This document shows, piece by piece, positions 5,797 through 28,120 of a stretch of 28,120 nt of DNA. Position 1 is the first letter of the stretch. Each line of letters starts with the position of its first letter. Both the position numbers and the translations under genes were made by a program. The DNA is taken from the IMG/VR virus record IMGVR_UViG_2690316278_000016. One strand, given 5' to 3'. The stretch is from a virus. Lineage: Duplodnaviria; Heunggongvirae; Uroviricota; Caudoviricetes. The notes below the pieces were generated by a model. It had not been told where the DNA came from. It saw only the letters and a program-made list of their open reading frames with translations, and made no database searches.

Positions 5797-5882
5797 CTCA
5801 ATAAATATGAGTTTATAAGTTAGGCCTCGAGATTTTGTAGAAAGGGATGTATACTGAGTATCGTATAGATTTGGAGTGAGTG

Positions 5883-6905
5883 ATGACTGTAAAGGTGATA
5901 GACCTTTTTTGTGGTGCTGGCGGATTAACTCATGGTTTGCAGCTTGCGGGGCTTGATGTCGTTGCAGGCATTGACCTTGAGGGGGAATGTAGGTTTCCCT
6001 ATGAAAGAAACAATAAATCTAAGTTTATTGAGCAAGATATCGCTAAAGTAACAAAAGAGGAACTGCTGAGGCTTTATGGTGATGCGTCTGTAAAAGTATT
6101 GGCAGGATGCGCACCTTGCCAACCTTTTTCAAAATATACTCAAGGAAAAGATAAGGCTGATGATAAAAAATGGCCTCTTCTTTATGAGTTCGAACGTTTA
6201 ATTCGCGAAGTATCTCCAGAAATCGTAACAATGGAGAACGTTCCTGATGTAACTAAACATAAAGTTTATAATGATTTTTATAATTCATTGTTAAAGTTGG
6301 GCTATTATGTTTGGGCGTCTAAGATTGATTGTGTCGAATATGGAATCCCACAAAACCGTTCCCGTCATGTATTGTTGGCCTCAAAATTGGGGGCGATTGA
6401 GTTAGTAAAACGTGACGATGTTATTTTGAAAACAGTTAGAGATGCAATAGGAAATCTTCCTCCATTAGAAGATGGCCAAACAGATCCAAATGATATATTA
6501 CATAGAGCCAGTAAATTAAATCCGATTAATAAAAAAAGAATTATACACTCTGTTCCTGGTGGTACATGGAAGGACTGGCCGAAAGAGTTGGTTGCCGCTT
6601 GTCATATGAAATCCAGCGGTAAAGGGTATGCTAGTGTATATGGGCGCATGTCTTGGGATAAGCCAAGTCCAACAATTACAACTCTTTGTTATGGTTTCGG
6701 GAATGGGCGTTTTGGACATCCAGAACAGCATAGAGCGATTTCTCTTAGAGAGGCTGCTTTATTGCAAACTTTCCCGATGGATTATATTTTTGTAGAAGAC
6801 AAAAACAAGTTTGTTATAAGAAGTATTGGGAAAATGATAGGTAATGCTGTTCCTGTGGAACTAGGAAAAGCAATTGGGCAATCAATCAAGAACCATTTAG
6901 AATGA
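5883..6905 (+). CDS. DNA (cytosine-5)-methyltransferase, complete
   Basis: Motif I FCGAGG, catalytic motif IV GCAPCQPFS, motif VI ENV, motif VIII QNRSR, C-terminal GNAVPVELG; GGAG RBS 6 nt upstream of ATG 5883; AT-rich codon usage unlike flanking phage genes. Confidence 0.88.
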   Translation: MTVKVIDLFCGAGGLTHGLQLAGLDVVAGIDLEGECRFPYERNNKSKFIEQDIAKVTKEELLRLYGDASVKVLAGCAPCQPFSKYTQGKDKADDKKWPLLYEFERLIREVSPEIVTMENVPDVTKHKVYNDFYNSLLKLGYYVWASKIDCVEYGIPQNRSRHVLLASKLGAIELVKRDDVILKTVRDAIGNLPPLEDGQTDPNDILHRASKLNPINKKRIIHSVPGGTWKDWPKELVAACHMKSSGKGYASVYGRMSWDKPSPTITTLCYGFGNGRFGHPEQHRAISLREAALLQTFPMDYIFVEDKNKFVIRSIGKMIGNAVPVELGKAIGQSIKNHLE

Positions 6906-6911
6906 TAAAAT

Positions 6912-6928
6912 GGCCTGCTTTACAGGCC
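6912..6928. terminator. Short hairpin between the convergent methyltransferase and HEPN genes (possible bidirectional terminator)
   Basis: GGCCTG-CTTTA-CAGGCC inverted repeat in the 29-bp gap between the two stop codons; stem is short and T-tracts are weak. Confidence 0.35.
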
Positions 6929-6934
6929 TTATAA

Positions 6935-7615
6935 CTATTGTTCTAAATATTCATTATTATTTATATAGTGCTCTATATTATTCACGATAGCATCAAGATA
7001 GGCGATTACTTCTAATGAAATATTCTCTAAGTCCTGATATGAAACATTTTTTCCAATCTCAGCAAATGATACATTGCCATGAGATAAATCATTACGATGT
7101 TGTTTAACAGTGGCTAATTTTTCACCATGTTTAGTGTGAGTGTAATCGGAATGTGTAGAAAAACCATATATTTTCGATTTTTCTTTGATTTCCTCTCTAT
7201 CAATATTTCCTGAGAATATTTTCTTTTTGTTGAACGTGCCATAAGATATACCGCAAGATATACCTTTGGTAAGGTGATTAACTAAACTTTCAACATTTAC
7301 AGATTCATTTTTTAATCTTTTTAATATTTCTGACCTGAGATTTTTCCTGAGTTTGTCAAATTCTACGTTTCTATCATAAATAGTCTCATGAATAAGGCAG
7401 ATAGCTTCTCTCATTGTTGATTCAATGAGGTTATATAACAGTATATATACTGCTCCCTTTAGAGTTTTTCGTGATTGAGCAGTAATGGAGAACTTATGTT
7501 CTTTATCATCAGCTGATATCAGTTCTGCACCGGCATACTCAATAAATTTCAAAAGATCCAAATAGGCCAAGATCTCTCCTGACCTTTCGTCAAAATCCTC
7601 ACGAAAACGATCCAT
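6935..7615 (-). CDS. HEPN-like domain protein (MAE_28990/MAE_18760-type), putative RNase effector
   Basis: 226 aa; C-terminal RNDLSHG fits the HEPN Rx4HG motif; start codon sits 1 nt after the upstream DUF262 gene stop (TAA-C-ATG). Confidence 0.6.
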   Translation of the reverse strand: MDRFREDFDERSGEILAYLDLLKFIEYAGAELISADDKEHKFSITAQSRKTLKGAVYILLYNLIESTMREAICLIHETIYDRNVEFDKLRKNLRSEILKRLKNESVNVESLVNHLTKGISCGISYGTFNKKKIFSGNIDREEIKEKSKIYGFSTHSDYTHTKHGEKLATVKQHRNDLSHGNVSFAEIGKNVSYQDLENISLEVIAYLDAIVNNIEHYINNNEYLEQ

Positions 7616-7616
7616 G

Positions 7617-8759
7617 TTAATCCTCTAATAATTTATCCCGAACATATTCAATTCGTTCAATTACCTTCACGCGACTATTAGCTCCGTCGGAAGTGGTCAA
7701 TCGTTTGAATTCTTCTGAGCTTAGCCAATCTAAGTTCTTGGGAACAAGGTCAGGGACTTCACGTAATGCAAGTGCTGCGCCAACAGCGAGAGATTCGAAT
7801 CTAACTCGAGGTGTAGATTTTGCAGTAATAGTTTTCTTGAATCCTGCTGGGAAATAGTTTTCAACAAAAGATAGAACATTAGCAAACTCTTGTTTCATTG
7901 AGTTTTGTTTAGTTTCGTCTATATCTCGATTTTCTGACATATAGTCATTTAGAAAATCCCGTACGGAATGATCAAAGTTCTTGTACTTATCTACGTAGGC
8001 AAAGAATCTTAATGTAAATTCTAACCGTTCATCTCGTTTTTCTTTAGTCTGAGATAAAGGTGCTAATTCTTTAAATTTAGGTATTGTTGAGCATGGCTTA
8101 ATAACCTGTGTATATAAATTTGTTGAACCAAGTTCTGATCCTTTACGGACTTCCATATCTTTCAATATATCGCTGCCAGAGTTAATACGCTCAAAAAGAT
8201 CTCTACGGGTTTCTTCATTGCATTTAGAACTCAATTCTATAACGCGGACAGGAATTCTCATGAAACGACGTTGACGTGATAATGGTAAATCTTGGAATTT
8301 GAAACCATTAAGGACGTCTAAAGATTTCAGGTCTTGTAAAACTAATTCATTTTGGATAAAAGCGTGTATAGTCCTAACTCGTTGTGAGCCATCAACAATC
8401 TCAATTCGCCCATCTAAATCGGGATCTTCGGAGAGAACATCTGCTATAAATATATATGGTATAGGAAAACCCAAAATCAAAGACTCTATCAATTTTGATT
8501 GTCTTTTTTCACTCCAAACAAAATCCCTTTGATAATCAGGAACAAAGAGTTCGTTAGTATCATCCTCTAATCCGTTATGATACTTATTAACTAATAACTC
8601 AACGGTAAATTCTTTGGTCTCAAAATCCACATCCTTTTGCTCAGCACGAATTTGCTCTTCAGCGTTTTGCTTTATCACCTCTAGCTGAGCAAGCAACTCT
8701 GCTCTTTTCTTGGCATTATCTTCATTTTCTAGTTGAGATTTTAAATCAATAATGTCCAT
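7617..8759 (-). CDS. DUF262 (ParB/Srx-like, GmrSD N-terminal-type) domain protein
   Basis: N-terminal DYQRDFVWS and IVDGSQRVRTI (DGQQR-type motif); ATG at 8759 with AAGGGAA RBS upstream, ORF track extends to a TTG at 8777; no obvious HNH/DUF1524 C-terminal motif. Confidence 0.7.
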   Translation of the reverse strand: MDIIDLKSQLENEDNAKKRAELLAQLEVIKQNAEEQIRAEQKDVDFETKEFTVELLVNKYHNGLEDDTNELFVPDYQRDFVWSEKRQSKLIESLILGFPIPYIFIADVLSEDPDLDGRIEIVDGSQRVRTIHAFIQNELVLQDLKSLDVLNGFKFQDLPLSRQRRFMRIPVRVIELSSKCNEETRRDLFERINSGSDILKDMEVRKGSELGSTNLYTQVIKPCSTIPKFKELAPLSQTKEKRDERLEFTLRFFAYVDKYKNFDHSVRDFLNDYMSENRDIDETKQNSMKQEFANVLSFVENYFPAGFKKTITAKSTPRVRFESLAVGAALALREVPDLVPKNLDWLSSEEFKRLTTSDGANSRVKVIERIEYVRDKLLED

Positions 8760-9103
8760 GTCTAGTTCCCTTAACAAGTGTTAAAAATTGAAGCGGATAG
8801 CATACCGCATAGATCATGAAAAATGCCATCATGTGCATGGATTTGCATGCGTCAGAAGTCGCTTTTATTGTTAGTTATCACTAGCGCTGGCGTGCTCTTG
8901 GAGTGTTCATGCAACTGCATTAAAACCGCCCCATGAAGCGGGCGGGCGAGGCGGGGAAAGCACTGCGCGCTGGCGGTGGTGCTGATTTTATTTTCCAGCG
9001 TCTCAGCGCGTCGTGACGGCGCTTAGTCTGCCCGTTGGGCGTTGGTGTGTCTGCGGGATTTTTTGTGCGGTGATGAGCGTGTGAGGGCGTGATGGCGGGG
9101 TGT

Positions 9104-13023: not shown

Positions 13024-14129
13024 ATGCGCCAGGAAACCCGCTTTAAATTTAATGCTTACCTGTCCCGTGTTGCCGAGCTGAACGGCATCGACGCCGGTGA
13101 TGTGTCGAAAAAATTCACCGTTGAACCGTCGGTCACCCAGACCCTGATGAACACCATGCAGGAGTCCTCTGACTTTCTGACCCGCATCAACATTGTGCCG
13201 GTCAGTGAAATGAAAGGGGAAAAAATTGGCATCGGTGTCACCGGCTCCATCGCCAGCACCACCGACACCGCCGGTGGCACCGAGCGTCAGCCGAAGGACT
13301 TCTCGAAGCTGGCGTCAAACAAGTACGAATGCGACCAGGTTAACTTCGATTTTTATATCCGCTACAAAACGCTTGACCTGTGGGCGCGTTATCAGGATTT
13401 CCAGCTCCGTATCCGTAACGCCATTATCAAACGCCAGTCCCTTGATTTCATCATGGCCGGTTTTAACGGCGTGAAGCGTGCCGAAACCTCTGACCGCAAC
13501 AGTAATCCGATGCTGCAGGATGTGGCGGTCGGCTGGCTGCAGAAATACCGAATGAAGCCCCGGCGCGCGTGATGAGCAAGGTCACTGACGAGGAAGGCCG
13601 CACCACCTCTGAGGTTATCCGCGTGGGTAAGGGCGGTGATTATGTAAGCCTCGATGNNNNNNNNNNNNNNNNNNNNNNNNNNNNNNNNNNNNNGGTGATG
13701 GATGCGACCAACAACCTGATTGAACCTTGGTATCAGGAAGACCCTGACCTTGTGGTGATTGTGGGGCGTCAGCTACTGGCGGACAAGTATTTCCCTATCG
13801 TCAACAAGGAGCAGGATAACAGCGAGATGCTGGCCGCTGACGTCATCATCAGCCAGAAACGCATCGGTAACCTGCCGGCGGTACGCGTCCCGTACTTCCC
13901 GGCGGATGCGATGCTCATCACGAAGCTGGAAAACCTGTCCATCTACTACATGGATGACAGCCATCGCCGCGTGATTGTGGAAAACCCGAAACTCGACCGC
14001 GTGGAGAACTACGAGTCAATGAACATTGATTACGTGGTGGAGGACTACGCCGCCGGTTGTCTGGTGGAAAAAATTAAGGTCGGTGATTTCTCCACACCGG
14101 CTAAAGCGACCGCAGAGCCGGGAGCGTAA
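13024..14129 (+). pseudogene. N: Major capsid protein (P2 gpN-like), reading frame broken near 13550 and containing a 37-nt N-gap (13657-13693)
   Basis: Two consecutive ORFs (13024-13572 and 13569-14129) in different frames together span about 368 codons, the expected size for gpN; may be a true frameshift or a sequencing indel. Confidence 0.75.
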
Positions 14130-18343: not shown

Positions 18344-18409
18344 TTGTGCCATTCCTGACACCTCATCGTCACATTGCCGCCGGTATGACCCGGCGGCATC
18401 CTTCCCGTT

Positions 18410-19236
18410 ATGAACACTCTCGCAAATATTCAGGAACTCGCGCGCGCACTGCGCAACATGATCCGCACCGGCATTAAGGTCGGTTTCGACGATAATGCCG
18501 GTNNNNNNNNNNNNNNNNNNNNNNNNNNNNNNNNNNNNNNNNNNNNNNNNNNNNNNNNNNNNNNNNNNNNNNNNNNNNNNNNNNNNNNNNNNNNNNNNNN
18601 NNNNNNNNNNNNNNNNNNNNNNNNNNNNNNNNNNNNNNNNNNNNNNACACGGCAGCGACCGGCATTATCGTCGAAACCGACCTTAATGCCGGTCGCTGCC
18701 GTGTGCAGACCGGCGGCATGTGCACCGACTGGCTTCAGTGGCTGACCCATCGCGCCGGACGTTCGCGCACATGGTGGGCACCTTCCGTGGGGGAACAGGT
18801 GCTGATTCTGGCCGTAGGCGGTGAACTCGACACGGCGTTCGTTCTGCCGGGGATTTATTCCGGTGATAACCCCGCGCCGTCTGCGTCGGCGGATGCCCTG
18901 CATATCCGTTTCCCTGACGGGGCGGTGATTGAGTATGAACCTGAAACCAGTGCACTCACGGTAAGCGGAATTAAAACGGCCAGCGTGACGGCTTCTGATT
19001 CTGTTACTGCCACGGTGCCGGTGGTCACGGTGAAAGCATCAACCCGCGTCACTCTGGACACGCCGGAGGTGGTCTGCACAAACAAGCTGATCACTGGCAC
19101 GCTGGAAGTGCAGAAGGGCGGGACGATGCGCGGCAACATTGAACACACCGGCGGTGAACTCTCATCAAACGGGAAGGTACTGCATACCCATAAACACCCC
19201 GGCGACAGCGGCGGCACAACCGGGAGTCCTCTATGA
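18410..19236 (+). CDS. V: Baseplate spike/assembly protein V-like, interrupted by a 144-nt N-gap with inverted-duplicate flanks
   Basis: N-terminus MNTLANIQELARALRNMIRTGI before the gap, then ...GIIVETDLNAGRCRVQTGGMCTDWLQWL... to stop at 19236; true length probably about 211 aa once the gap/duplication is removed. Confidence 0.75.
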
Positions 19237-19584: not shown

Positions 19585-20493
19585 ATGCCGATTATCGACC
19601 TGAACCAGCTACCCGCACCGGATGTGGTCGAGGAGCTGGACTTTGAAACCATTCTTGCCGAACGCAAGGCGACACTGATTTCCCTTTACCCGGAAGACCA
19701 GCAGGAGGCGGTCGCCCGTACCCTGACGCTGGAATCCGAGCCTCTCGTCAAACTGCTGGAGGAAAATGCTTATCGTGAGCTTATCTGGCGTCAGCGTGTG
19801 AATGAGGCCGCACGGGCGGTAATGCTGGCCTGTGCCGCCGGTAATGACCTTGATGTGATTGGTGCCAATTACAACACCACGCGCCTGATTATCACCCCGG
19901 CAGATGATTCGACCCTCCCGCCGACACCGGCAGTGATGGAATCTGACACGGATTATCGTCTGCGTATTCAGCAGGCGTTTGAAGGTTTAAGCGTCGCCGG
20001 GTCGGTGGGGGCCTATCAGTATCATGGTCGCAGTGCCGACGGGCGTGTCGCGGATATTTCTGTAACCAGTCCGTCTCCGGCCTGCGTCACCATCTCTGTG
20101 CTGTCACGTGAAAATAACGGTGTCGCATCCGAAGACCTGCTGGCGGTGGTGCGTAACGCCCTTAATGGTGAGGACGTCAGGCCGGTGGCCGACCGCGTGA
20201 CCGTGCAGTCTGCCGCCATCGTTGAATACCAGATAAACGCCACGCTTTACCTTTACCCTGGTCCCGAAAGCGAACCCATACGCGCTGCTGCCGTGAAAAA
20301 ACTGGAAGCGTACATCACGGCACAGCACCGGCTGGGGCGCGACATCCGTCTGTCTGCCATTTATGCCGCTTTGCATGTGGAAGGCGTGCAGCGTGTCGAA
20401 CTGACTGCACCGCTGGCCGACATCGTGCTCAACAGTACGCAGGCGTCTTTCTGTACCGAATACCGCGTCGTGACCGGAGGCTCGGATGAGTGA
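19585..20493 (+). CDS. J: Baseplate protein J-like
   Basis: 302-aa ORF, size and position match P2 J. Confidence 0.85.
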   Translation: MPIIDLNQLPAPDVVEELDFETILAERKATLISLYPEDQQEAVARTLTLESEPLVKLLEENAYRELIWRQRVNEAARAVMLACAAGNDLDVIGANYNTTRLIITPADDSTLPPTPAVMESDTDYRLRIQQAFEGLSVAGSVGAYQYHGRSADGRVADISVTSPSPACVTISVLSRENNGVASEDLLAVVRNALNGEDVRPVADRVTVQSAAIVEYQINATLYLYPGPESEPIRAAAVKKLEAYITAQHRLGRDIRLSAIYAALHVEGVQRVELTAPLADIVLNSTQASFCTEYRVVTGGSDE

Positions 20494-21016
20494 TTCGCGA
20501 CTGCTGCCGACCGGCTCATCACCGCTTGAAGTTGCCGCCGCAAAAGCCTGTGCGGAAATTGAAAAAACGCCGGTCAGGATTCGTGAACTGTGGAACCCGG
20601 ATACCTGTCCGGCAAATCTGCTGCCGTGGCTGGCGTGGGCGTTTTCGGTCGACAGGTGGGATGAAAAGTGGCCGGAAGCGACAAAACGCGCCGTTATCCG
20701 CGATGCCTATTTCATCCACTGTCATAAAGGCACTATCGGCGCAATCCGGCGTGTGGTGGAGCCGCTCGGCTATCTCATCAACGTGACGGAGTGGTGGGAA
20801 AACAGTGACCCGCCCGGCACCTTCCGGCTTGATATTGGTGTACTGGAAAGCGGCATCACAGAGGCAATGTATCAGGAAATGGAACGGCTTATTGCTGATG
20901 CCAAACCTGCAAGCCGTCATCTTATTGGCCTGAACATTACCCGGGACATTCCCGGCTACCTGTTCGCCGGTGGTGTGGCTTACGACGGCGATGTAATTAC
21001 GGTTTACCCCGGATAA
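20486..21016 (+). CDS. I: Tail/baseplate protein I-like
   Basis: 176-aa ORF overlapping the J stop; ends ...AYDGDVITVYPG. Confidence 0.8.
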   Translation: MSDSRLLPTGSSPLEVAAAKACAEIEKTPVRIRELWNPDTCPANLLPWLAWAFSVDRWDEKWPEATKRAVIRDAYFIHCHKGTIGAIRRVVEPLGYLINVTEWWENSDPPGTFRLDIGVLESGITEAMYQEMERLIADAKPASRHLIGLNITRDIPGYLFAGGVAYDGDVITVYPG

Positions 21017-21026
21017 GTGAGGAATA

Positions 21027-21846
21027 ATGAGCACAAAATTCAGAACCGTTATCACCACTGCCGGTGCAGCAAAGCTGGCAGCGGCAACCGCACCGGGAGG
21101 GCGGAAGGTCAACATTACCACGATGGCCGTCGGGGATGGCGGTGGTAAATTGCCTGTCCCGGATGCCGGACAGACCGGGCTTATCCACGAAGTCTGGCGA
21201 CATACGCTGAACAAAATCAGCCAGGACAAACGAAACAGTAATTATATTATCGCAGAGCTGGTTATTCCGCCGGAGGTGGGCGGTTTCTGGATGCGTGAGC
21301 TTGGCCTGTACGATGATGCGGGAACGTTAATTGCCGTGGCGAACATGGCCGAAAGTTATAAGCCAGCTCTTGCCGAAGGCTCAGGGCGTTCGCAGACCTG
21401 TCGCATGGTCATCATCGTCAGCAGTGTGGCCTCGGTGGAGCTGACCATTGACACCACAACGGTGATGGCGACACAGGATTACGTTGATGACAAAATTGCA
21501 GAGCACGAACAGTCACGACGTCACCCGGACGCCTCGCTGACCGCAAAAGGTTTTACTCAGTTAAGCAGTGCGACCAACAGCACGTCTGAAACACTGGCCG
21601 CAACGCCGAAAGCGGTAAAGGCCGCCTATGACCTTGCTAACGGGAAATACACTGCACAGGACGCCACTACAGCGCGAAAAGGTCTTGTCCAGCTCAGTAG
21701 TGCCACCAACAGCACGTCTGAAACGCTTGCGGCAACGCCAAAGGCGGTTAAGACAGCGTATGACCTTGCTAACGGGAAATACACTGCACAGGACGCCACT
21801 ACAGCGCGAAAAGGTCTTGTCCAGCTAAGTAGTGCCATCAACAGCG
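21027..21846 (+). CDS. H: Tail fibre protein, 5' portion (copy 1) including phage-fibre tandem repeats; truncated at an ambiguous base
   Basis: N-terminus MSTKFRTVITTAGAAKLAAATAPGG...MAVGDGGG; repeat units ...QLSSATNSTSETLAATPKAVK...; ORF then runs into a gene-I-like 3' end after the n at 21847. Confidence 0.7.
21545..21846 (+). repeat. In-frame 132-bp (44-aa) tandem repeat, about 2.3 copies, phage tail-fibre repeat
   Basis: Unit starts at 21545, 21677 and 21809 are near-identical at DNA level; further partial copies at 22914-22993 and 23092-23218 across N-gaps. Confidence 0.8.
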
Positions 21847-21847
21847 N

Positions 21848-21893
21848 AGCAACTTACGACGGTGAAGTCATTACCATTTATCCGGACGATTAA
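21848..21893 (+). other. Remnant 3' end of a second gene-I-like ORF fused after the ambiguous base
   Basis: Encodes ATYDGEVITIYPDD-stop, paralogous to the end of gene I (AYDGDVITVYPG-stop), followed 2 nt later by a second tail-fibre start. Confidence 0.5.
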
Positions 21894-21895
21894 GC

Positions 21896-22764
21896 ATGAG
21901 TACCACAACACGAAAATTTAAAACCATTATCACCGATACGGGTGCAAAAAAATTAGCGCAGGCAACCGCGCCAGATGGGAAACCTGTCCGCCTGACACAT
22001 ATGGCCGTGGGTGACGGCGGCGGTACTTTACCCACGCCAGACAGTAAGCAGACCCGTCTTGTGCATGAGGTGTGGCGACATACCGTTAATCGCGTCACCC
22101 TGGACGCAACACATCAGAACCACATTATTGCGGAGCTGGTTATTCCTCCTGAAACGGGCGGATTCTGGATCCGGGAAATTGGTGTGTTTGATGAGCACGG
22201 CGATTTGATCGCGGTAGGCAATACTGCCGAAAGTTACAAGCCAACCGTTGCCGAAGGATCCGGACGTGCACAAACATTTCGCACCATTCTGACCGTATCC
22301 AGCACTGCCACTGTGGCGCTTACCGTGGATAACACCATGGTGATGGCCACAGTGAATTACGTGGATGACAAACTGAAAGAGCATGAACAGTCACGACGTC
22401 ACCCGGACGCCTCGCTGACCGCAAAAGGCCTTGTCCAGCTCAGCAACGCCACCAACAGCACGTCTGAAACGCTGGCAGCGACACCAAAAGCCGTTAAGGC
22501 AGTAATGGATGAAACGAACAAGAAAGCCCCATTAAACAGCCCGGCACTGACCGGAACGCCAACAACACCAACTGCGCGACAGGGAACGAATAATACCCAA
22601 ATCGCAAGCACGGCTTTCGTTATGGCTGCGATTGCCGCACTTGTAGACTCTTCGCCTGATGCACTGAACACACTGAACGAGCTGGCGGCGGCGCTGGGCA
22701 ACGACCCGAATTTTGCGACCACCATGACTAACGCGCTTGCGGGTAAGCAACCGAAAGATGCCAC
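21896..22764 (+). CDS. Tail fibre protein, 5' portion (copy 2, diverged paralogue of copy 1), truncated at an N-gap
   Basis: N-terminus MSTTTRKFKTIITDTGAKKLAQATAPDGKPVRLTHMAVGDGGG..., colinear with but clearly diverged from copy 1; same SRRHPDASLTAKGLVQLS repeat entry. Confidence 0.65.
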
Positions 22765-22775
22765 NNNNNNNNNNN

Positions 22776-25161
22776 TTCGCAGACCTGTCGCATGGTCATC
22801 ATCGTCAGCAGTGTGGCCTCGGTGGAGCTGACCATTGACACCACAACGGTGATGGCGACACAGGATTACGTTGATGACAAAATTGCAGAGCACGAACAGT
22901 CACGACGTCACCCGGACGCCTCGCTGACCGCAAAAGGCCTTGTCCAGCTCAGTAGTGCCACCAACAGCACGTCTGAAACGCTTGCGGCAACGCNNNNNNN
23001 NNNNNNNNNNNNNNNNNNNNNNNNNNNNNNNNNNNNNNNNNNNNNNNNNNNNNNNNNNNNNNNNNNNNNNNNNNNNNNNNNNNNNNNNNNNACCAACAGC
23101 ACGTCTGAAACACTGGCCGCAACGCCGAAAGCGGTAAAGGCCGCCTATGACCTTGCTAACGGGAAATACACTGCACAGGACGCCACTACAGCGCGAAAAG
23201 GTCTTGTCCAGCTCAGTANNNNNNNNNNNNNNNNNNNNNNNNNNNNNNNNNNNNNNNNNNNNNNNNNNNNNNNNNNNNNNNNNNNNNNNNNNNNNNNNNN
23301 NNNNNNNNNNNNNNNNNNNNNNNNNNNNNNNNNNNNNNNNNNNNNNNNNNNNNNNNNNNNNNNNNNNNNNNNNNNNNNNNNNNNNNNNNNNNNNNNNNNN
23401 NNNNNNNNNNNNNNNNNNNNNNNNNNNNNNNNNNNNNNNNNNNNNNNNNNNNNNNNNNNNNNNNNNNNNNNNNNNNNNNNNNNNNNNNNNNNNNNNNNNN
23501 NNNNNNNTGCCACTCTGACGGCGCTGGCGGGGCTTGCTACTGCGGCAGACAGGTTTCCGTATTTTACGGGGAATGATGTCGCCAGCCTGGCAACCCTGAC
23601 AAAAGTCGGGCGGGATATTCTTGCGAAATCGACCGTTGCCGCCGTTATCGAATACCTCGGTTTACAGGAAACGGTAAATCAGGCTTCTGGCGCATTACAG
23701 AAAAACCAGAACGGCGCAGATATTCCGGGGAAAGATACCTTCACCAAAAATATTGGTGCCTGCCGCGCATATAGCTCATGGCTGAATATTGGTGGCGATA
23801 GTCAGGTCTGGACAACCGCGCAATTTATTTCGTGGCTGGAGAGTCAGGGAGCATTTAACCATCCTTACTGGATGTGCAAAGGCTCATGGGCTTATGCAAA
23901 TAATAAGGTCATTACAGATACAGGTTGCGGAAATATTTGTCTTGCAGGTGCTGTGGTGGAAGTTATTGGCACTCGCGGCGCAATGACCATACGCGTTACC
24001 ACGCCGAGCACGTCCAGCGNNNNNNNNNNNAACGACCCGAATTTTGCGACCACCATGACTAACGCGCTTGCGGGTAAGCAACCGAAAGATGCCACCCTGA
24101 CGGCGCTGGCCGGACTTACTACTGCGGCAGGCAAGTTTCCGTATTTTACGGGGAATGATGTCGCCAGCCTGGCAACCCTGACAAAAGTCGGGCGGGATAT
24201 TCTTGCGAAATCGACCGTTGCTGCCGTTATCGAATACCTCGGTTTACGAGAACTCGGCACAAGCGGGGAGAAAATACCGTTACTCAGTACAGCGAATACC
24301 TGGACTAATCGACAAACATTCAGCGGTGGCCTTTCTGGTGAACTATCCGGCAATGCTTCTACAGCTGCAAAATTAAAAACTGCCAGGAAAATAAGCAATG
24401 TGGCTTTTGATGGTTCCTCCGATATCACATTAAAAGCAAGTCATGTTGGTGCGTTTGCCTTAGGGAAAACAGGAAGCACCGTTGCGAATGATAAAGCAGT
24501 TGGATGGAACTGGAGTAGCGGAGCCTATAACGCAACTATTAGTGGTGCATCAACGTTAATTATTCATTTTTATATGGGAGAAGGAAGTTGTCCTGCAGCT
24601 CAGTTTCGGATTAATTATAAAAATGGCGGTATTTTTTATCGTTCAGCCCGTGATGGTTATGGTTTTGAAGCCGACTGGTCCGAATTTTACACCACCAGAA
24701 AACCTTCAGCAGGAGATGTTGGTGCACTGCCGTTATCTGGTGGTCAACTGAATGGTGCACTGGGTATCGGAACATCCAGTGCTCTTGGCGGTAATTCGAT
24801 TGTATTGGGTGATAATGACACGGGCTTTAAACAAAAAGGCGATGGTAATCTGGATGTTTATGCTAATAACGTCCATGTTATGCGCTTTGTCTCCGGAAGC
24901 ATTCAAAGTAATAAAACCATAAATATTACGGGACGTGTTAATCCCTCGGATTACGGTAACTTTGATTCCCGCTATGTGAGAGATGTCAGACTTGGCACAC
25001 GAGTTGTTTAGACCATGAAGAAAGGCGTGATGTATGAAAAATCAGGCCATGTAATCACGGGGCTTGGTATTATCGGTGAAGTCGATGGTGATGATCCGGC
25101 AGTATTCAGACCAATACAAAAGTTAATTAACGGAACATGGTATAACGTATCGCAGGTATAA
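22776..25161 (+). pseudogene. H: Tail fibre mosaic: repeated blocks and two alternative C-terminal regions joined through four N-gaps; in-frame TAG at 25009-25011
   Basis: 22776-22940 duplicates 21393-21557; 23508-23660 and 24110-24250 are near-duplicates; C-terminal region ends ...RLGTRVV-TAG-TMKKGVMYEK...[17 protein letters not shown]-stop, same frame either side of the TAG. Confidence 0.55.
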
Positions 25162-25163
25162 TC

Positions 25164-25442
25164 ATGCAGCATTTAAAAAACATTGTCGCAGGTAATCCAA
25201 AAACCGTTGAACAATACCAGCTAACAAAGAATTTTGATGTTATCTGGTTATGGTCCGAAGATGGAAAAAATTGGCATGAGGAATTAAAAAACTTTCAGGA
25301 GGATACAATAAAACTGGCTTACACAGTTGAGGGAATAATTATTGCTATAGACAAGGATGTATCAGCAATTAATCCAGAAGGTTTAAGTGTCGTTGAGTTG
25401 CCTGATATTACAGCAAATCGCCGGGCTGATATTTCGGGCAAC
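25164..25442 (+). pseudogene. G: Tail fibre assembly protein (tfa, P2 gpG-like), 5' half only, truncated by IS3-family element
   Basis: N-terminus [22 protein letters not shown]...[13 protein letters not shown] is colinear with the two intact tfa paralogues downstream, then switches to transposase sequence after the n at 25444. Confidence 0.7.
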
Positions 25443-26582
25443 TNTGAAAATCAACTTTCGATCAGTGAAGGCGCTTCCCGATTATCTCTTCCTGAAGGCA
25501 CTTTAGGACAATGGGTTACCGCCGCCAGAAAAGGGCTCGGTACTCCTGGTTCCCGCACGGTGGCTGAACTGGAATCTGAAATTCTGCAACTGCGTAAGGC
25601 GTTAAATGAAGCTCGCCTTGAGCGAGATATATTAAAAAAAGCAACAGCGTATTTTGCACAGGAGTCGCTGAAAAATACGCGTTAATCGAACAATGGCGAC
25701 AACAATTTCCCATTGAAGCGATGTGTCAGGTATTTGGTGTATCCAGGAGCGGTTATTACAACTGGGTACAGCATGAACCCTCAGACAGAAAACAAAGTGA
25801 TGAGCGGCTAAAACTGGAGATTAAGGTGGCACATATCCGCACTCGCGAAACATATGGAACCCGGCGGCTCCAGACGGAGCTGGCAGAGAATGGCATCATC
25901 GTTGGTCGTGACCGACTGGCACGTCTTCGTAAGGAGCTAAGGCTACGCTGTAAGCAGAAACGCAAGTTCAGAGCGACTACGAACTCGAACCACAATCTGC
26001 CAGTTGCGCCAAATCTGCTGAACCAGACGTTCGCTCCTACAGCACCAAATCAGGTCTGGGTGGCGGACCTGACGTATGTTGCCACACAGGAGGGATGGTT
26101 GTACCTCGCTGGCATCAAAGATGTTTATACGTGCGAAATTGTCGGCTACGCCATGGGAGAGCGCATGACAAAAGAGCTGACAGGTAAAGCCCTGTTTATG
26201 GCGCTCAGGAGCCAGCGCCCACCTGCCGGGCTAATCCACCACTCTGATCGAGGTTCACAGTACTGCGCATACGATTACCGGGTCATACAGGAGCAGTCTG
26301 GTCTGAAAACATCAATGTCGCGTAAAGGTAACTGTTACGACAACGCTCCGATGGAAAGCTTCTGGGGAACGCTGAAAAATGAGAGCCTGAGCCACTATCG
26401 TTTTAATAACCGGGATGAAGCCATCTCAGTAATACGGGAATACATTGAGATTTTCTACAATCGTCAGCGTCGTCACTCTCGTCTGGGGAATATCTCCCCG
26501 GCAGCCTTCAGGGAAAAATATCATCAGATGGCTGCTTAAAAAAAGAACAAATGGTAGTGTCCGCTATTGCCAGTACACCTCA
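25443..26582 (+). mobile_element. IS3-family insertion sequence, apparently 5'-truncated (orfA lacks its first ~20-25 codons and no left inverted repeat or UTR is present)
   Basis: orfA-like frame to stop at 25683-25685 (…WVTAARKG…ILKKATAYFAQESL), A7 slippery run at 25634-25640, orfB in the -1 frame to 26539 with DDE/rve-like residues (WVADLTYV, HSDRGSQY, YDNAPMESFW); boundaries approximate. Confidence 0.75.
25634..25640 (+). promoter_or_regulatory. Programmed -1 ribosomal frameshift site (A AAA AAA) for the OrfAB transposase fusion
   Basis: Heptamer lies in the orfA frame just before the orfA stop; the -1 frame is open from here into orfB. Confidence 0.55.
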
Positions 26583-26849
26583 GAGTTTTACACCACAACC
26601 CGCAAACCCTCTGCGGGAGATGTTGGTGCATATACGCAGGCAGAATGTAACTCAAGGTTTATTACAGGTATTCGCCTTGGTGGTCTGTTATCTGTTCAGA
26701 CATGGAATGGTCCCGGATGGTCTGACAGGTCAGGTTATGTTGTTACCGGTTCCGTTAACTCAAACAGAGATGAACTAATTGATACAACTCAGGCAAGGCC
26801 AATTCAGTATTGCATTAATGGGACGTGGTATAACGCGGGGAGTATTTAA
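26583..26849 (+). pseudogene. 3' remnant of an alternative tail-fibre C-terminal (receptor-binding) domain, detached from its 5' part by the IS
   Basis: Encodes EFYTTTRKPSAGDVGA...[17 protein letters not shown]-stop, paralogous to the H C-terminus (EFYTTRKPSAGDVGA...[17 protein letters not shown]); immediately followed by a tfa gene. Confidence 0.65.
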
Positions 26850-26851
26850 CG

Positions 26852-27564
26852 ATGATGCACTTAAAAAACATTTCTGCTGGTAATCCTGAAACAAAAGAGC
26901 AATACCAGCTAACGAAACAATTTAACATCAAATGGCTTTATACAGAGGATGGGAAAAACTGGTATGAGGAACAAAAGAACTTTCAGCCTGATACGTTGAA
27001 AATGGTCTATGACCACAACGGCGTTATTATTTGTATTGAAAAGGATGTTTCAGCAATTAATCCGGAAGGCGCAAGCGTCGTTGAGGTTCCTGATATTACA
27101 GCAAATCGCCGGGCTGATATTTCAGGTAAATGGATGTTCAAAGATGGCGTAGTGATAAAGCGAACTTATACCGGGGAAGAGCAGAGGCAACAAGCGGAAA
27201 ATGAAAAGCAAAGCCTGCTACAGCTNNNNNNNNNNNNNNNNNNNNNNNNNNNNNNNNNNNNNNNNNNNNNNNNNNNNNNNNNNNNNNNNNNNNNNNNNNN
27301 NNNNNNNNNNNNNNNNNNNNNNNNNNNNNNNNNNNNNNNNNNNNNNATACCGGGGAAGAGCAGAGGCAACAAGCGGAAAATGAAAAGCAAAGCCTGCTAC
27401 AGCTCGTCAGGGATAAAACCCAGCTATGGGACTCACAGCTACGGCTGGGCATTATTTCCGACGAGAATAAACAAAAATTAACCGAGTGGATGCTCTATGC
27501 GCAGAAGGTCGAATCCACAGACACCTCCAGCCTGCCAGTAACGTTTCCCGAACAACCAGAATGA
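26852..27564 (+). CDS. Tail fibre assembly protein (tfa paralogue 2), containing an N-gap with duplicated flanks
   Basis: N-terminus [22 protein letters not shown]...[20 protein letters not shown]; gap at 27226-27346 is flanked by an identical ~59-bp sequence on both sides. Confidence 0.75.
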
Positions 27565-27567
27565 AAC

Positions 27568-27594
27568 AAGGCCCGATATCGGGCCTTAATTTTT
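27568..27594. terminator. Palindromic hairpin with T-run between convergent tfa genes (bidirectional terminator)
   Basis: AAGGCCCGATATCGGGCCTT perfect palindrome at 27568-27587 followed by AATTTTT. Confidence 0.6.
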
Positions 27595-28120
27595 ACTCAG
27601 GCTTTTGTGGCCATTCTGGCTTTGCCGTATCCACACGGCTGACCAGAACACTGTAGCGTTCCCATGCTTCCAGTCGTGTGCGTTCCTCGTCCGTCGCCAT
27701 ATTCAGCCTGACAGCGCGTTCCAGCGGCTGGATGACTGATTCAGCTTCGGAAAGCAATGCGGCCTTTTGTGATTCGGCCTGTTGTTGCTGTTCGTCAGCC
27801 GTATAAATCCGTTTAACCACAGCTCCGTCCTTAAACATCCACTTACCGGAATCATCAGCACGACGATTAGCTGTAATATCAGGAACCTCAACGACGCTAT
27901 AACCTTCAGGGTTAAGCGTGGAGGCATCTTTGGTGATGGCGACAATAATATTATTTGCATCGTAAACAATCTTTATTGTGTCTGGCTGAAAGTTCTTCAC
28001 TTCCTCATACCAGTTTTTTCCGTCCTCAGAGTAAAGCCAGATGACTCCGTGCTTCTTTGTTAACTCATACTGCTCCACTGTTTTAGCATTACCTGCTTTT
28101 ATGTTCTTTAAGTGCATCAT
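27593..28120 (-). CDS. Tail fibre assembly protein (tfa paralogue 3), opposite strand, complete
   Basis: 175 aa, [22 protein letters not shown]...[20 protein letters not shown]; start codon at the last 3 bases of the window. Confidence 0.8.

Follow-up and report, generated by a model that had tools for sequence, protein, structure and literature searches.

Knowledge of the tail-fibre switches of the Din family goes back to the 1980s-90s, and such switches are annotated in the phages Mu, P1, P7 and P88, as well as in hundreds of E. coli and Shigella prophages. In the G-gin system of Mu, found also in D108 and SfMu, the order is S'v-U' → ← U-Sv, and the C-cin system of P1 and P7, whose records carry an annotated invertible C segment, has the same Sv-U/U' core. 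As for the B segment of S. boydii, which goes with pinB, Tominaga, Ikemizu and Enomoto reportedly described in 1991 a high homology to G-gin in size and organisation, together with a different 5′ constant region. The GenBank record of P1 notes 93% identity of the U/U' region to SHFPINB (D00660, B-pinB; J Bacteriol 173:4079). Escherichia phage P88 (Xuanwuvirus, Peduoviridae) and the P88-type prophages (E. coli O103:H2 12009, FDAARGOS_1370) present the order V W J I H tfa → ← tfa' Sv' / DNA invertase / ← U T E' E, V and W upstream and the tube/sheath genes FII/FI beyond E being visible in the P88-type prophage loci only. Additionally, inversion in the fibre loci of E. coli P2-like prophages has been shown experimentally (PMC4272514).

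The window considered here (the whole stretch of 28,120 nucleotides that was analysed) ends in a stretch, 26583-28120, that is very probably the centre of an invertible tail-fibre segment of about 3.05 kb, of the B-segment/pinB type and orthologous to Mu G and P1 C, from a P88-type prophage of an S. sonnei-like genome. The core inference, an invertible segment, holds because of the orthology to Mu, the presence of the crossover site bixL in the window, the occurrence of Sv3, bixR and the invertase in relatives and the existence of both orientations. Short contigs joined across N gaps make up the window, a scaffold in which the following features are relevant:

19585-21016: P2-type baseplate genes
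21848-22764, plus strand: piece c2, the last 46 nt of gene I and the 5′ 871 nt of fibre gene H (constant) of a P88-type prophage, prophage B
23508-23644, plus strand: piece c5, end of the constant part (Sc) of the prophage B fibre gene H (8884-8707 in locus L001)
23645-23670, minus strand: 26-bp Din-family crossover site, TTCCTGTAAACC GA GGTATTCGATAA, left boundary of the invertible segment and equal to the published bixL
23671-24019, plus strand: 5′ part of Sv2 (Mu S'v orthologue), fused in frame to Sc, with the contig end at 24019
24031-25443, plus strand: piece c6, a separate Rac-like lambdoid prophage invertible segment, outside this one, with the end of the Stf constant part, a Din-type site (24227-24252), Sv1 and the 5′ 280 nt of tfa1 (25164-25443)
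25445-26582, plus strand: IS600 (IS3 family), of whose 1264 bp nt 127-1264 are present, comprising the complete orfB, a portion of orfA and the right inverted repeat
26583-26849, plus strand: 3′ end of Sv2 of the fibre gene H(Sc-Sv2), codons 569-656 and stop, separated from the rest by IS600
26852-27564, plus strand: tfa2, tail-fibre assembly chaperone, Mu U' orthologue, with a true gene of 534 nt (177 aa)
27568-27587, no strand assigned: hairpin AAGGCCCGATATCGGGCCTT, a perfect GC-rich palindrome separating the convergent tfa genes
27593-28120, minus strand: tfa3, tail-fibre assembly chaperone, Mu U orthologue, with its cognate Sv3 past the window edge

The first-pass annotation had placed a fibre fragment, a tfa gene, a palindrome and a minus-strand tfa gene in 26583-28120, and all of them are found at those positions. 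The fibre fragment (88 codons and a stop) matches codons 569-656 of H(Sc-Sv2), a protein of 656 aa in S. sonnei prophage loci, with 100% identity and shares 85 of its 88 residues (97%) with the C-terminus of Mu S' and 86 of 88 with phage P88. A Pfam search with the 88-aa fragment alone gave no match, and the fragment is assigned to a fibre by way of its full-length homologues. Both chaperones lie well above the Pfam gathering cut-off of Caudo_TAP (PF02413; 22.1 bits), with E 7e-37 and 126.9 bits for tfa2 (177 aa) and E 2.5e-37 and 128.4 bits for tfa3 (175 aa). The identity to Mu is 173 of 177 residues (98%) between tfa2 and U' and 158 of 175 (90%) between tfa3 and U, and the exact tfa3 protein occurs in the S. 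sonnei prophage loci L006-L015. The hairpin between these genes is terminator-like on both strands, with a T-run after it on the plus strand and also scored on the minus strand. Two convergent cassettes, Sv2(3')-tfa2 → ← tfa3, are present in the window, while Sv3 is seen in relatives only.

At the nucleotide level, 26583-28120 is 92.4% identical to the Mu G segment over 92% of length, 92.4-92.7% to the C segments of P1 and P7, 96.4% to SfMu and 92.2% to the P2-family phage P88, and the Mu annotation maps the fragment, tfa2 and tfa3 onto S', U' and U. The proposal that the convergent pair is the core of a host-range segment of the Gin/Cin/Pin type is thus strengthened beyond mere layout, as the pair is orthologous to Mu G and P1 C. 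With respect to Mu, the sites found here have 2-3 differences from gix in 26 positions and the neighbouring invertase of relatives shares 157 of 195 residues with Gin, but the fibre constant part and the remainder of the phage are of the P2 family and Sv3 shares only 215 of 328 residues with the Mu Sv region. P1 and P7 differ in having another constant region and backbone, and the core of cix is AA, whereas it is GA here. The likeness to S. boydii B-pinB includes the host group, Shigella, and, in a comparison made at the sites only, the bixL of the window and the bixR of its 100%-identical relatives are the same as those published. The different 5′ constant region that is said to characterise the B segment matches the P2-family H constant part found here; by contrast, Sv2 here carries an IS600 insertion. 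P88 and the P88-type prophages have the same whole-locus architecture, and the P88-type invertase is identical to that of S. sonnei at 192 of 195 residues, although they are without IS600 and their variable parts are a few percent apart.

On the left side of the segment, c2 is 100% identical to positions 9795-8879 of L001 and to the S. sonnei loci L006-L013, and c5 follows on from c2, overlapping it by 6 nt in reference coordinates, its Sc end being 100% identical to L006, L008, L009, L014 and L015. The c5 open reading frame reads ...AAVIEYLGLQETVNQ... through the crossover site in frame into Sv2, and the same Sc leads into Sv3 in relatives. An exact match to bixL, of which 0 would be expected by chance, is found at 23645-23670. 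Both this site and its inverted partner on the invertase side in relatives, bixR (TTATCTAAAACCTCGGTTTACAGGAA), have the 12-2-12 form and are identical to the sequences in the published crossover-site table (PMC3241671). The segment had been thought to extend past the right edge of the window; it does so in relatives, but not only in that direction, as its left crossover site lies inside the window, from which 326 nt of Sv2 (L001 6022-6347) are absent. Pieces c2, c5, c7 and c8 are 100% identical to, and collinear with, S. sonnei loci, and these four alone rebuild the P88-type locus exactly. Although scaffold order is no proof of a physical linkage between c5 and c7/c8, order and orientation match the relatives exactly.

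The prediction of an inverted fibre C-terminus and a serine invertase beyond tfa3 came true in relatives. Five S. sonnei loci (L006, L008, L009, L014 and L015) are 100% identical over the window pieces and have the same orientation. Beyond tfa3, L006 and L009 carry a minus-strand 328-aa fibre C-terminus (Sv3), a second 26-bp crossover site and a 195-aa invertase with Resolvase and HTH_7 domains; in L008, L014 and L015, the second crossover site is split by IS600, and L015 is also without a called Sv3 open reading frame. An uninterrupted bixR is found at the expected place in L001, L004, L005, L006, L009, L010 and L013, and two sites are present in the P88-type relatives of the c7/c8 segment, 6 loci having one of the two split by IS600. 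The 195-aa invertase, which matches the Mu Gin structure 4M6F (E 1.7e-100) and has the N-terminal motif YVRVST(N)DQ, is intact in all of the S. sonnei-type loci with the exact tfa3 (10/10, L006-L015). Regarding orientation, Sc is joined to Sv2 in the window and in L004, L005, L006, L008, L009, L014 and L015, and to Sv3 in L001, L007, L010, L011, L012 and L013. Among near-identical genomes, this swap leaves the outer half-sites fixed and exchanges the inner flanks (Sv2/Sv3) at the site core; the outer half-site of the type present at 23645-23670 stays with Sc. Judging from these relatives, the source genome probably carries Sv3, bixR and an intact invertase to the right of 28120, and inversion is presumably still active there.

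The fibre C-terminus had been described as "detached", as if this were the architecture of the system, but the cause is IS600, which abuts it at 26582. This element is 99.9-100% identical to copies annotated as "IS3-like element IS600 family transposase", its OrfB matches the rve and HTH_21 domains and, with the ends defined from full copies, its right end, ...GTACACCTCA (...CACCTCA), falls at 26582. The contig begins inside IS600, whose left 126 nt the window does not include. As the fragment starts at 26583, the first base past the right end of IS600, it is an insertion-truncated gene and not a free-standing cassette. Only the last 88 codons precede tfa2 because IS600 has been inserted in Sv2, at codon 568/569, with the segment in the Sc-Sv2 orientation. 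The IS600/fibre junction was found neither in an exact scan of species-representative genomes nor in the top hits obtained from 5,426 complete genomes of E. coli, and no record matched the 134-aa open reading frame that runs across it. IS-mediated deletion or rearrangement could conceivably have removed further parts of the system. It was also considered that tfa1 was interrupted by an IS and that IS600 was truncated at its 5′ end, but position 25444 is a scaffold join and the last bases of tfa1 continue normally in S. sonnei 53G. As a separate observation, further IS600 copies are present in S. sonnei relatives, in tfa2 and inside bixR (the latter, for example, in CP026836, CP032523 and CP044151), and in sister strains a candidate hybrid crossover site may take its outer half from the end of the IS600 inserted in bixR.

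The scaffold structure also explains other traits of the window. The gap in tfa2 consists of 121 N at 27226-27346, between contig ends that overlap by 58 nt, and 27347-27404 consequently duplicates 27168-27225; the listed 209-aa tfa2 open reading frame is an artefact. The N runs were considered as in-place masks, a reading discarded because relatives have only 4 nt at the place of a 37-N run, and because the 121-N run lies between these overlapping ends. Genes of a canonical P2 prophage fill 1-21846, and a misjoin is found at 21847, where a single-N join links 820 nt of the canonical P2 fibre gene (H_A) to the last 46 nt of the prophage B gene I. Since c2 comes directly after a single-N join to the H of a different prophage, this junction is a scaffold misjoin. 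Regarding c6, tfa1 stops at the contig end and is followed by a single N, and Sv1 has a TAG nonsense codon at 25009-25011. The piece is 99.75% identical to S. sonnei loci adjoining trpA (L016-L021), with which it shares the TAG mutation, and 99.2% identical to the stf-tfa region of E. coli NCTC86 (L003), a Rac-like locus with an invertase stump only. It is a locus of the same kind as the e14 P segment-pin and the Rac and Qin stf-tfa-pin loci of E. coli K-12, which have an stf constant part, a Din site, convergent tfa genes and an adjacent pin, but which differ from 26583-28120 in their lambdoid side-tail-fibre context and are a separate locus. A reading of the c5 and c6 junctions as both orientations of one segment in the culture is discarded, as their constant parts differ and c6 matches another prophage. 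The first-pass picture of three tfa genes in one locus mixes contig pieces from separate prophages; the three genes in a row beside a canonical P2 body come from three different fibre loci, brought together by the scaffolding of short repeat-bounded contigs.

Three other explanations must be weighed against this one. The cassette had been proposed to be an addition to the P2 prophage of the window, in which case the locus would be a natural recombinant, a canonical P2 prophage with an acquired G/B-type segment. In favour of this, the scaffold unites the pieces in an order that is plausible, mosaicism is a known property of fibre genes, and P2-type H, Stf and Mu/P1 S have the constant region close to the site in common. 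However, the end of gene I of another prophage after a partial H_A is biologically senseless as contiguous DNA, and c2, c5, c7 and c8 make up a P88-type locus by themselves. In addition, the statement that canonical P2 has a single H-G pair holds in the 8 relatives with an identical gpI, in all of which the order is H-G-moron and none of which has an invertase; seven of them then run into sheath/tube genes, and the eighth, L026, is without these genes. We consequently regard attachment to the canonical P2 prophage as very improbable, and assign the segment to the second, P88-type prophage strung on by scaffolding. Slightly less credit still can be given to a single prophage with Min/shufflon-like multi-cassette inversion, in which at least three cassettes (Sv1-tfa1, Sv2-tfa2 and tfa3-Sv3) would serve one fibre gene, although one record does contain three tfa genes as well as Din-type sites at both 23645-23670 and 24227-24252, and a three-site system with four variants has been described in an EPEC P2-like prophage (PMC4272514). 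Each cassette lies on its own contig with N gaps between them, c6 corresponds, TAG included, to the Rac-like prophage that S. sonnei carries beside trp, and the two Sc copies differ (ATAADR vs TTAAGK). Furthermore, in all of the fetched relatives of c7/c8 with an adjoining invertase (12/12: L006-L015, L004 and L005), cassettes and sites number exactly two each, and the larger numbers that p15B Min, the shufflons and EPEC have in one continuous locus were not found here.

The remaining alternative concerns the state of the segment rather than its identity: it could be a frozen relic, degraded by IS elements and no longer inverting in the source because its invertase or bixR has been lost or disrupted. 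Sv2 has already been destroyed by IS600, the left IS600 junction and part of Sv2 (326 nt) are absent from the window, the S. sonnei relatives have the extra IS600 copies in tfa2 and inside bixR mentioned above, and in E. coli RMDEC465 (L002) the same pair lies at the end of a prophage in which no invertase is annotated. By contrast, the invertase is intact in the 10 S. sonnei-type loci, and both orientations occur even in a lineage with the same IS insertions (L012 vs L008/L014). A relic is thus unlikely, though less so than the two previous explanations.

For a segment of the B-segment/pinB type, the layout derived from c2, c5, c7 and c8 together with the 100%-identical relatives would be H constant - bixL - [Sv2 - tfa2 → hairpin ← tfa3 - Sv3] - bixR - Gin-like serine invertase. 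The invertase would cut both 26-bp sites at their central GA/TC dinucleotide and flip the segment, by which the constant N-terminal two-thirds of the fibre would be joined either to Sv2 with tfa2 (Mu S'/U' type) or to Sv3 with tfa3 (Mu S/U type). By analogy with Mu and P1, the swap between Sv2 and Sv3 would switch receptor specificity and, with it, may modify host range. With the IS600 insertion, the fibre gene is broken in the Sc-Sv2 orientation, and an intact fibre would be obtained solely by flipping to Sv3. It is also possible, although we consider it doubtful, that a single PinB/Gin-type invertase of the P88 prophage serves several sites: those of its own segment, as a functional/null toggle now that IS600 kills Sv2; those of the Rac-like stf, in trans; and the IS600-hybrid site in sister strains. 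In this regard, the own pin of the Rac-like stf segment is a 60-aa stump, and the c6 junction of the window is a recombinant of the 53G arrangement.

A Mu-type invertible tail-fibre segment is already known, and nothing in this locus is biologically new; it is scaffolding, and not biology, that has produced the long "fibre" open reading frames and the row of three tfa genes in the window. The appropriate annotation for the stretch is the S'/U'/U core of an invertible segment of B/G type whose Sv is disrupted by IS600, and what mild interest it has is limited to what was noted in passing about IS600 and the crossover sites of S. sonnei.

The fibre fragment and convergent pair of tail-fibre assembly (tfa) genes that the first-pass annotation described at 26583-28120 are real, as the reading frames were read directly and the proteins of both tfa genes match the Pfam family Caudo_TAP far over threshold.

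Features at 26583-28120 (genes from the ORF listing)
26583-26849: open frame of 88 codons including the protein end, also read directly, fibre gene fragment
26852-27564: tfa2, tail-fibre assembly gene, starting 2 nt past the fibre frame
27568-27587: perfect palindrome, GC-rich
27593-28120, minus strand: tfa3, complete, 175 codons

The window is a scaffolded draft and, right of 21846, a string of short contigs. Its nine N runs are not in-place masks, as relatives have 4 nt in the place of the 37 Ns at 13657 and the contig ends flanking the 121-N run in tfa2 overlap by 58 nt; given this overlap, the true tfa2 is a gene of 534 nt, encoding 177 aa, with its end at 27564. Beside the 144-N gap at 18503-18646 (within 18345-18658), the sequence on the right repeats the left flank in inverted orientation, an assembly artefact. 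At 18345-18658, relatives hold about 1 kb, in which a moron of 261 aa lies on the minus strand between genes S and V, and either the window is without it or the assembly failed there.

Contigs right of 21846
c2: 21848-22764
c3: 22776-22993
c4: 23092-23218
c5: 23508-24019
c6: 24031-25443
c7: 25445-27225
c8: 27347-28120

The 1.5 kb at 26583-28120 are 92.4% identical in nucleotides to the Mu G segment, 92.4-92.7% to the P1 and P7 C segments, 96.4% to SfMu and 92.2% to P88. In the Mu annotation, the counterpart of the fragment is S' (the C-terminal end in G(-) phage) and those of tfa2 and tfa3 are U' and U; the protein identities are 85/88, 173/177 and 158/175, in that order. Two 26-bp crossover sites lie in the window.

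Crossover sites
23645-23670: left site, TTATCGAATACC TC GGTTTACAGGAA, in c5, where the constant part (Sc) of fibre gene H reads through to the variable part Sv2
24227-24252: site in c6, Stf constant part - TTATCGAATACC TC GGTTTACGAGAA - Sv1

In relatives, the invertase-side site is TTATCTAAAACC TC GGTTTACAGGAA. The bixL and bixR sites of the S. boydii B segment-pinB, as given in Table 3 of PMC3241671, citing Tominaga et al. 1991, are the exact reverse complements of the left and invertase-side sites. The neighbouring invertase in relatives is a protein of 195 aa with Resolvase and HTH_7 domains, starting (V)LIGYVRVSTNDQ, and it matches the structure of Mu Gin with an E-value of 1.7e-100. The Sc-Sv2 orientation is found in the window and in relative loci L004, L005, L006, L008, L009, L014 and L015, and Sc-Sv3 in L001, L007, L010, L011, L012 and L013. 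Genome comparison shows that the outer half-sites stay fixed (one with Sc, the other with the invertase flank) and that the inner flanks, Sv2 and Sv3, are swapped, which is the prediction for crossover at the central dinucleotide. For P2-like prophages of E. coli, sequencing and PCR have shown such loci to invert (PMC4272514). Relatives of 100% identity do carry what was expected: an invertible segment for host range and, past the right edge, a fibre C-terminus in inverted orientation and a serine invertase. Additionally, a Sv2-tfa2/tfa3 pair 94-98% identical to this one ends a Mu-like/ymfQ-type prophage in E. coli RMDEC465 (L002, 8124-11677), adjoining a DinI-like gene; in the place of the invertase, only a short frameshifted pseudogene was found in that locus.

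The segment had also been considered a cassette added to the window's canonical P2, which is not supported: it belongs to a different prophage. The canonical P2-type body extends up to 21846, and all eight public relatives with identical gpI have one H, one tfa and a moron, with no invertase in any of the eight (8/8); sheath and tube genes come next in 7/8, L026 being without them. By contrast, c2, c5, c7 and c8 are collinear with, and 100% identical to, a second P2-family prophage of Shigella sonnei (L006-L015), likewise present in 'E. coli' FDAARGOS_943. After 820 nt of the P2-type fibre gene (H_A) and a single N following 21846, c2 opens with the final 46 nt of a P88-type gene I, and this junction is a misjoin; c3 and c4 hold repeat pieces from the canonical-P2 H gene.

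The second prophage has the architecture of P88 (Xuanwuvirus): V W J I H tfa -> <- tfa' Sv', the DNA invertase and then <- U T E' E FII FI, the P88 record itself spanning baseplate protein V to E. In four P88-type loci (L001, L004, L005, L031), FI-FII-E-E'-T-U lie on the strand opposite V-W-J-I-H, with the invertible segment and the invertase at the very point where these opposed blocks converge; no gene D is visible past U in the stretches examined of these loci.

The canonical prophage also carries three genes at 5880-8777, where gene A and the portal gene flank the P2 variable hotspot; they are probably an anti-phage defence cassette.

Hotspot genes
5880-6905, plus strand: C-5 cytosine DNA methyltransferase
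6935-7615, minus strand: HEPN MAE_28990-like protein
7617-8777, minus strand: GmrSD_N/DUF262 protein, matching PADLOC NsnA

The supposed third cassette, Sv1-tfa1 on c6, belongs to yet another locus, a Rac-like prophage, and the window mixes three fibre loci: canonical P2-type, P88-type and Rac-like lambdoid. The long 'fibre' ORFs at 21027-21893, 21896-22831 and 22792-25011 run over scaffold gaps and are chimeras that join pieces of at least three fibre genes (H_A, the P88-type H_B and the Rac-like Stf). Contig c6 (Sc, site, Sv1 and the 5' part of tfa1) is 99.75% identical to the Rac-like prophage beside trpA in S. sonnei, and was probably placed here by the scaffolder because the 3' halves of tfa1 and tfa2 are nearly identical. 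No IS interrupts tfa1: the contig ends, and the same bases continue (...ADISGNWMFKDG) in S. sonnei 53G. A nonsense codon in Sv1 (CAG->TAG, 25009-25011), which splits off a 48-aa ORF (25015-25161; exact ORF in 2201 blocks of the collection), is common to c6 and the S. sonnei genomes and points to a source of the S. sonnei lineage; E. coli NCTC86 has CAG. Compared with 53G (L019, 9183-9268 and 12099-12184), c6 is a recombinant junction, the Rac-like segment being inverted in the source. With the adjoining pin reduced to a stump of 60 aa, the inversion seems to have happened either in trans, through another Din invertase, or before pin decayed.

Although the detached fibre fragment was taken as a signature of the inversion system, it is a gene end truncated by insertion, as the right end of IS600 (...GTACACCTCA) is at 26582 and the next base, 26583, opens codon 569 in the gene of fibre H(Sc-Sv2), a protein of 656 aa. 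Contig c7 starts within this IS, at nt 127 of 1264, with 99.9-100% identity to copies that carry the annotation 'IS3-like element IS600 family transposase', and the last 88 fibre codons (26583-26849) match those in S. sonnei at 100% identity. The left IS600 junction and 326 nt of Sv2 (L001 6022-6347) are absent from the window. As Sv2 is broken, the Sc-Sv2 orientation, which c5 indicates for the source, yields no complete fibre there, whereas the flipped orientation could give one.

IS600 also lies within the invertase-proximal bixR in six S. sonnei loci, L007 (9056-10319), L008 (4707-5970), L011, L012, L014 and L015. The split site reads TTATCTAAAAC-IS600-AACC TC GGTTTACAGGAA, with AAC duplicated (3 bp), and behind it Sv2 adjoins the IS in L007, L011 and L012, and Sv3 in L008, L014 and L015. 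Either the hybrid site, with the IS600 end ACACCTCAAACC as its outer half, may still recombine, or the insertion would have recurred.

The components, crossover sites and two orientations were observed directly. From Mu and P1 biology, the invertase would flip a segment of about 3.05 kb, fusing Sc to Sv2 (with tfa2 as chaperone) or to Sv3 (with tfa3), and this alternation would switch receptor specificity. If the source resembles L006, Sv3 would take up about 0.99 kb past 28120, with bixR about 1.0 kb and the invertase about 1.1-1.7 kb from that edge; several S. sonnei strains have an IS600 there that adds 1.26 kb. The segment is a B/G/C-type switch of the Din family whose sites are published, and in this sense nothing new; the invertase is already annotated in records of P88-like phages.
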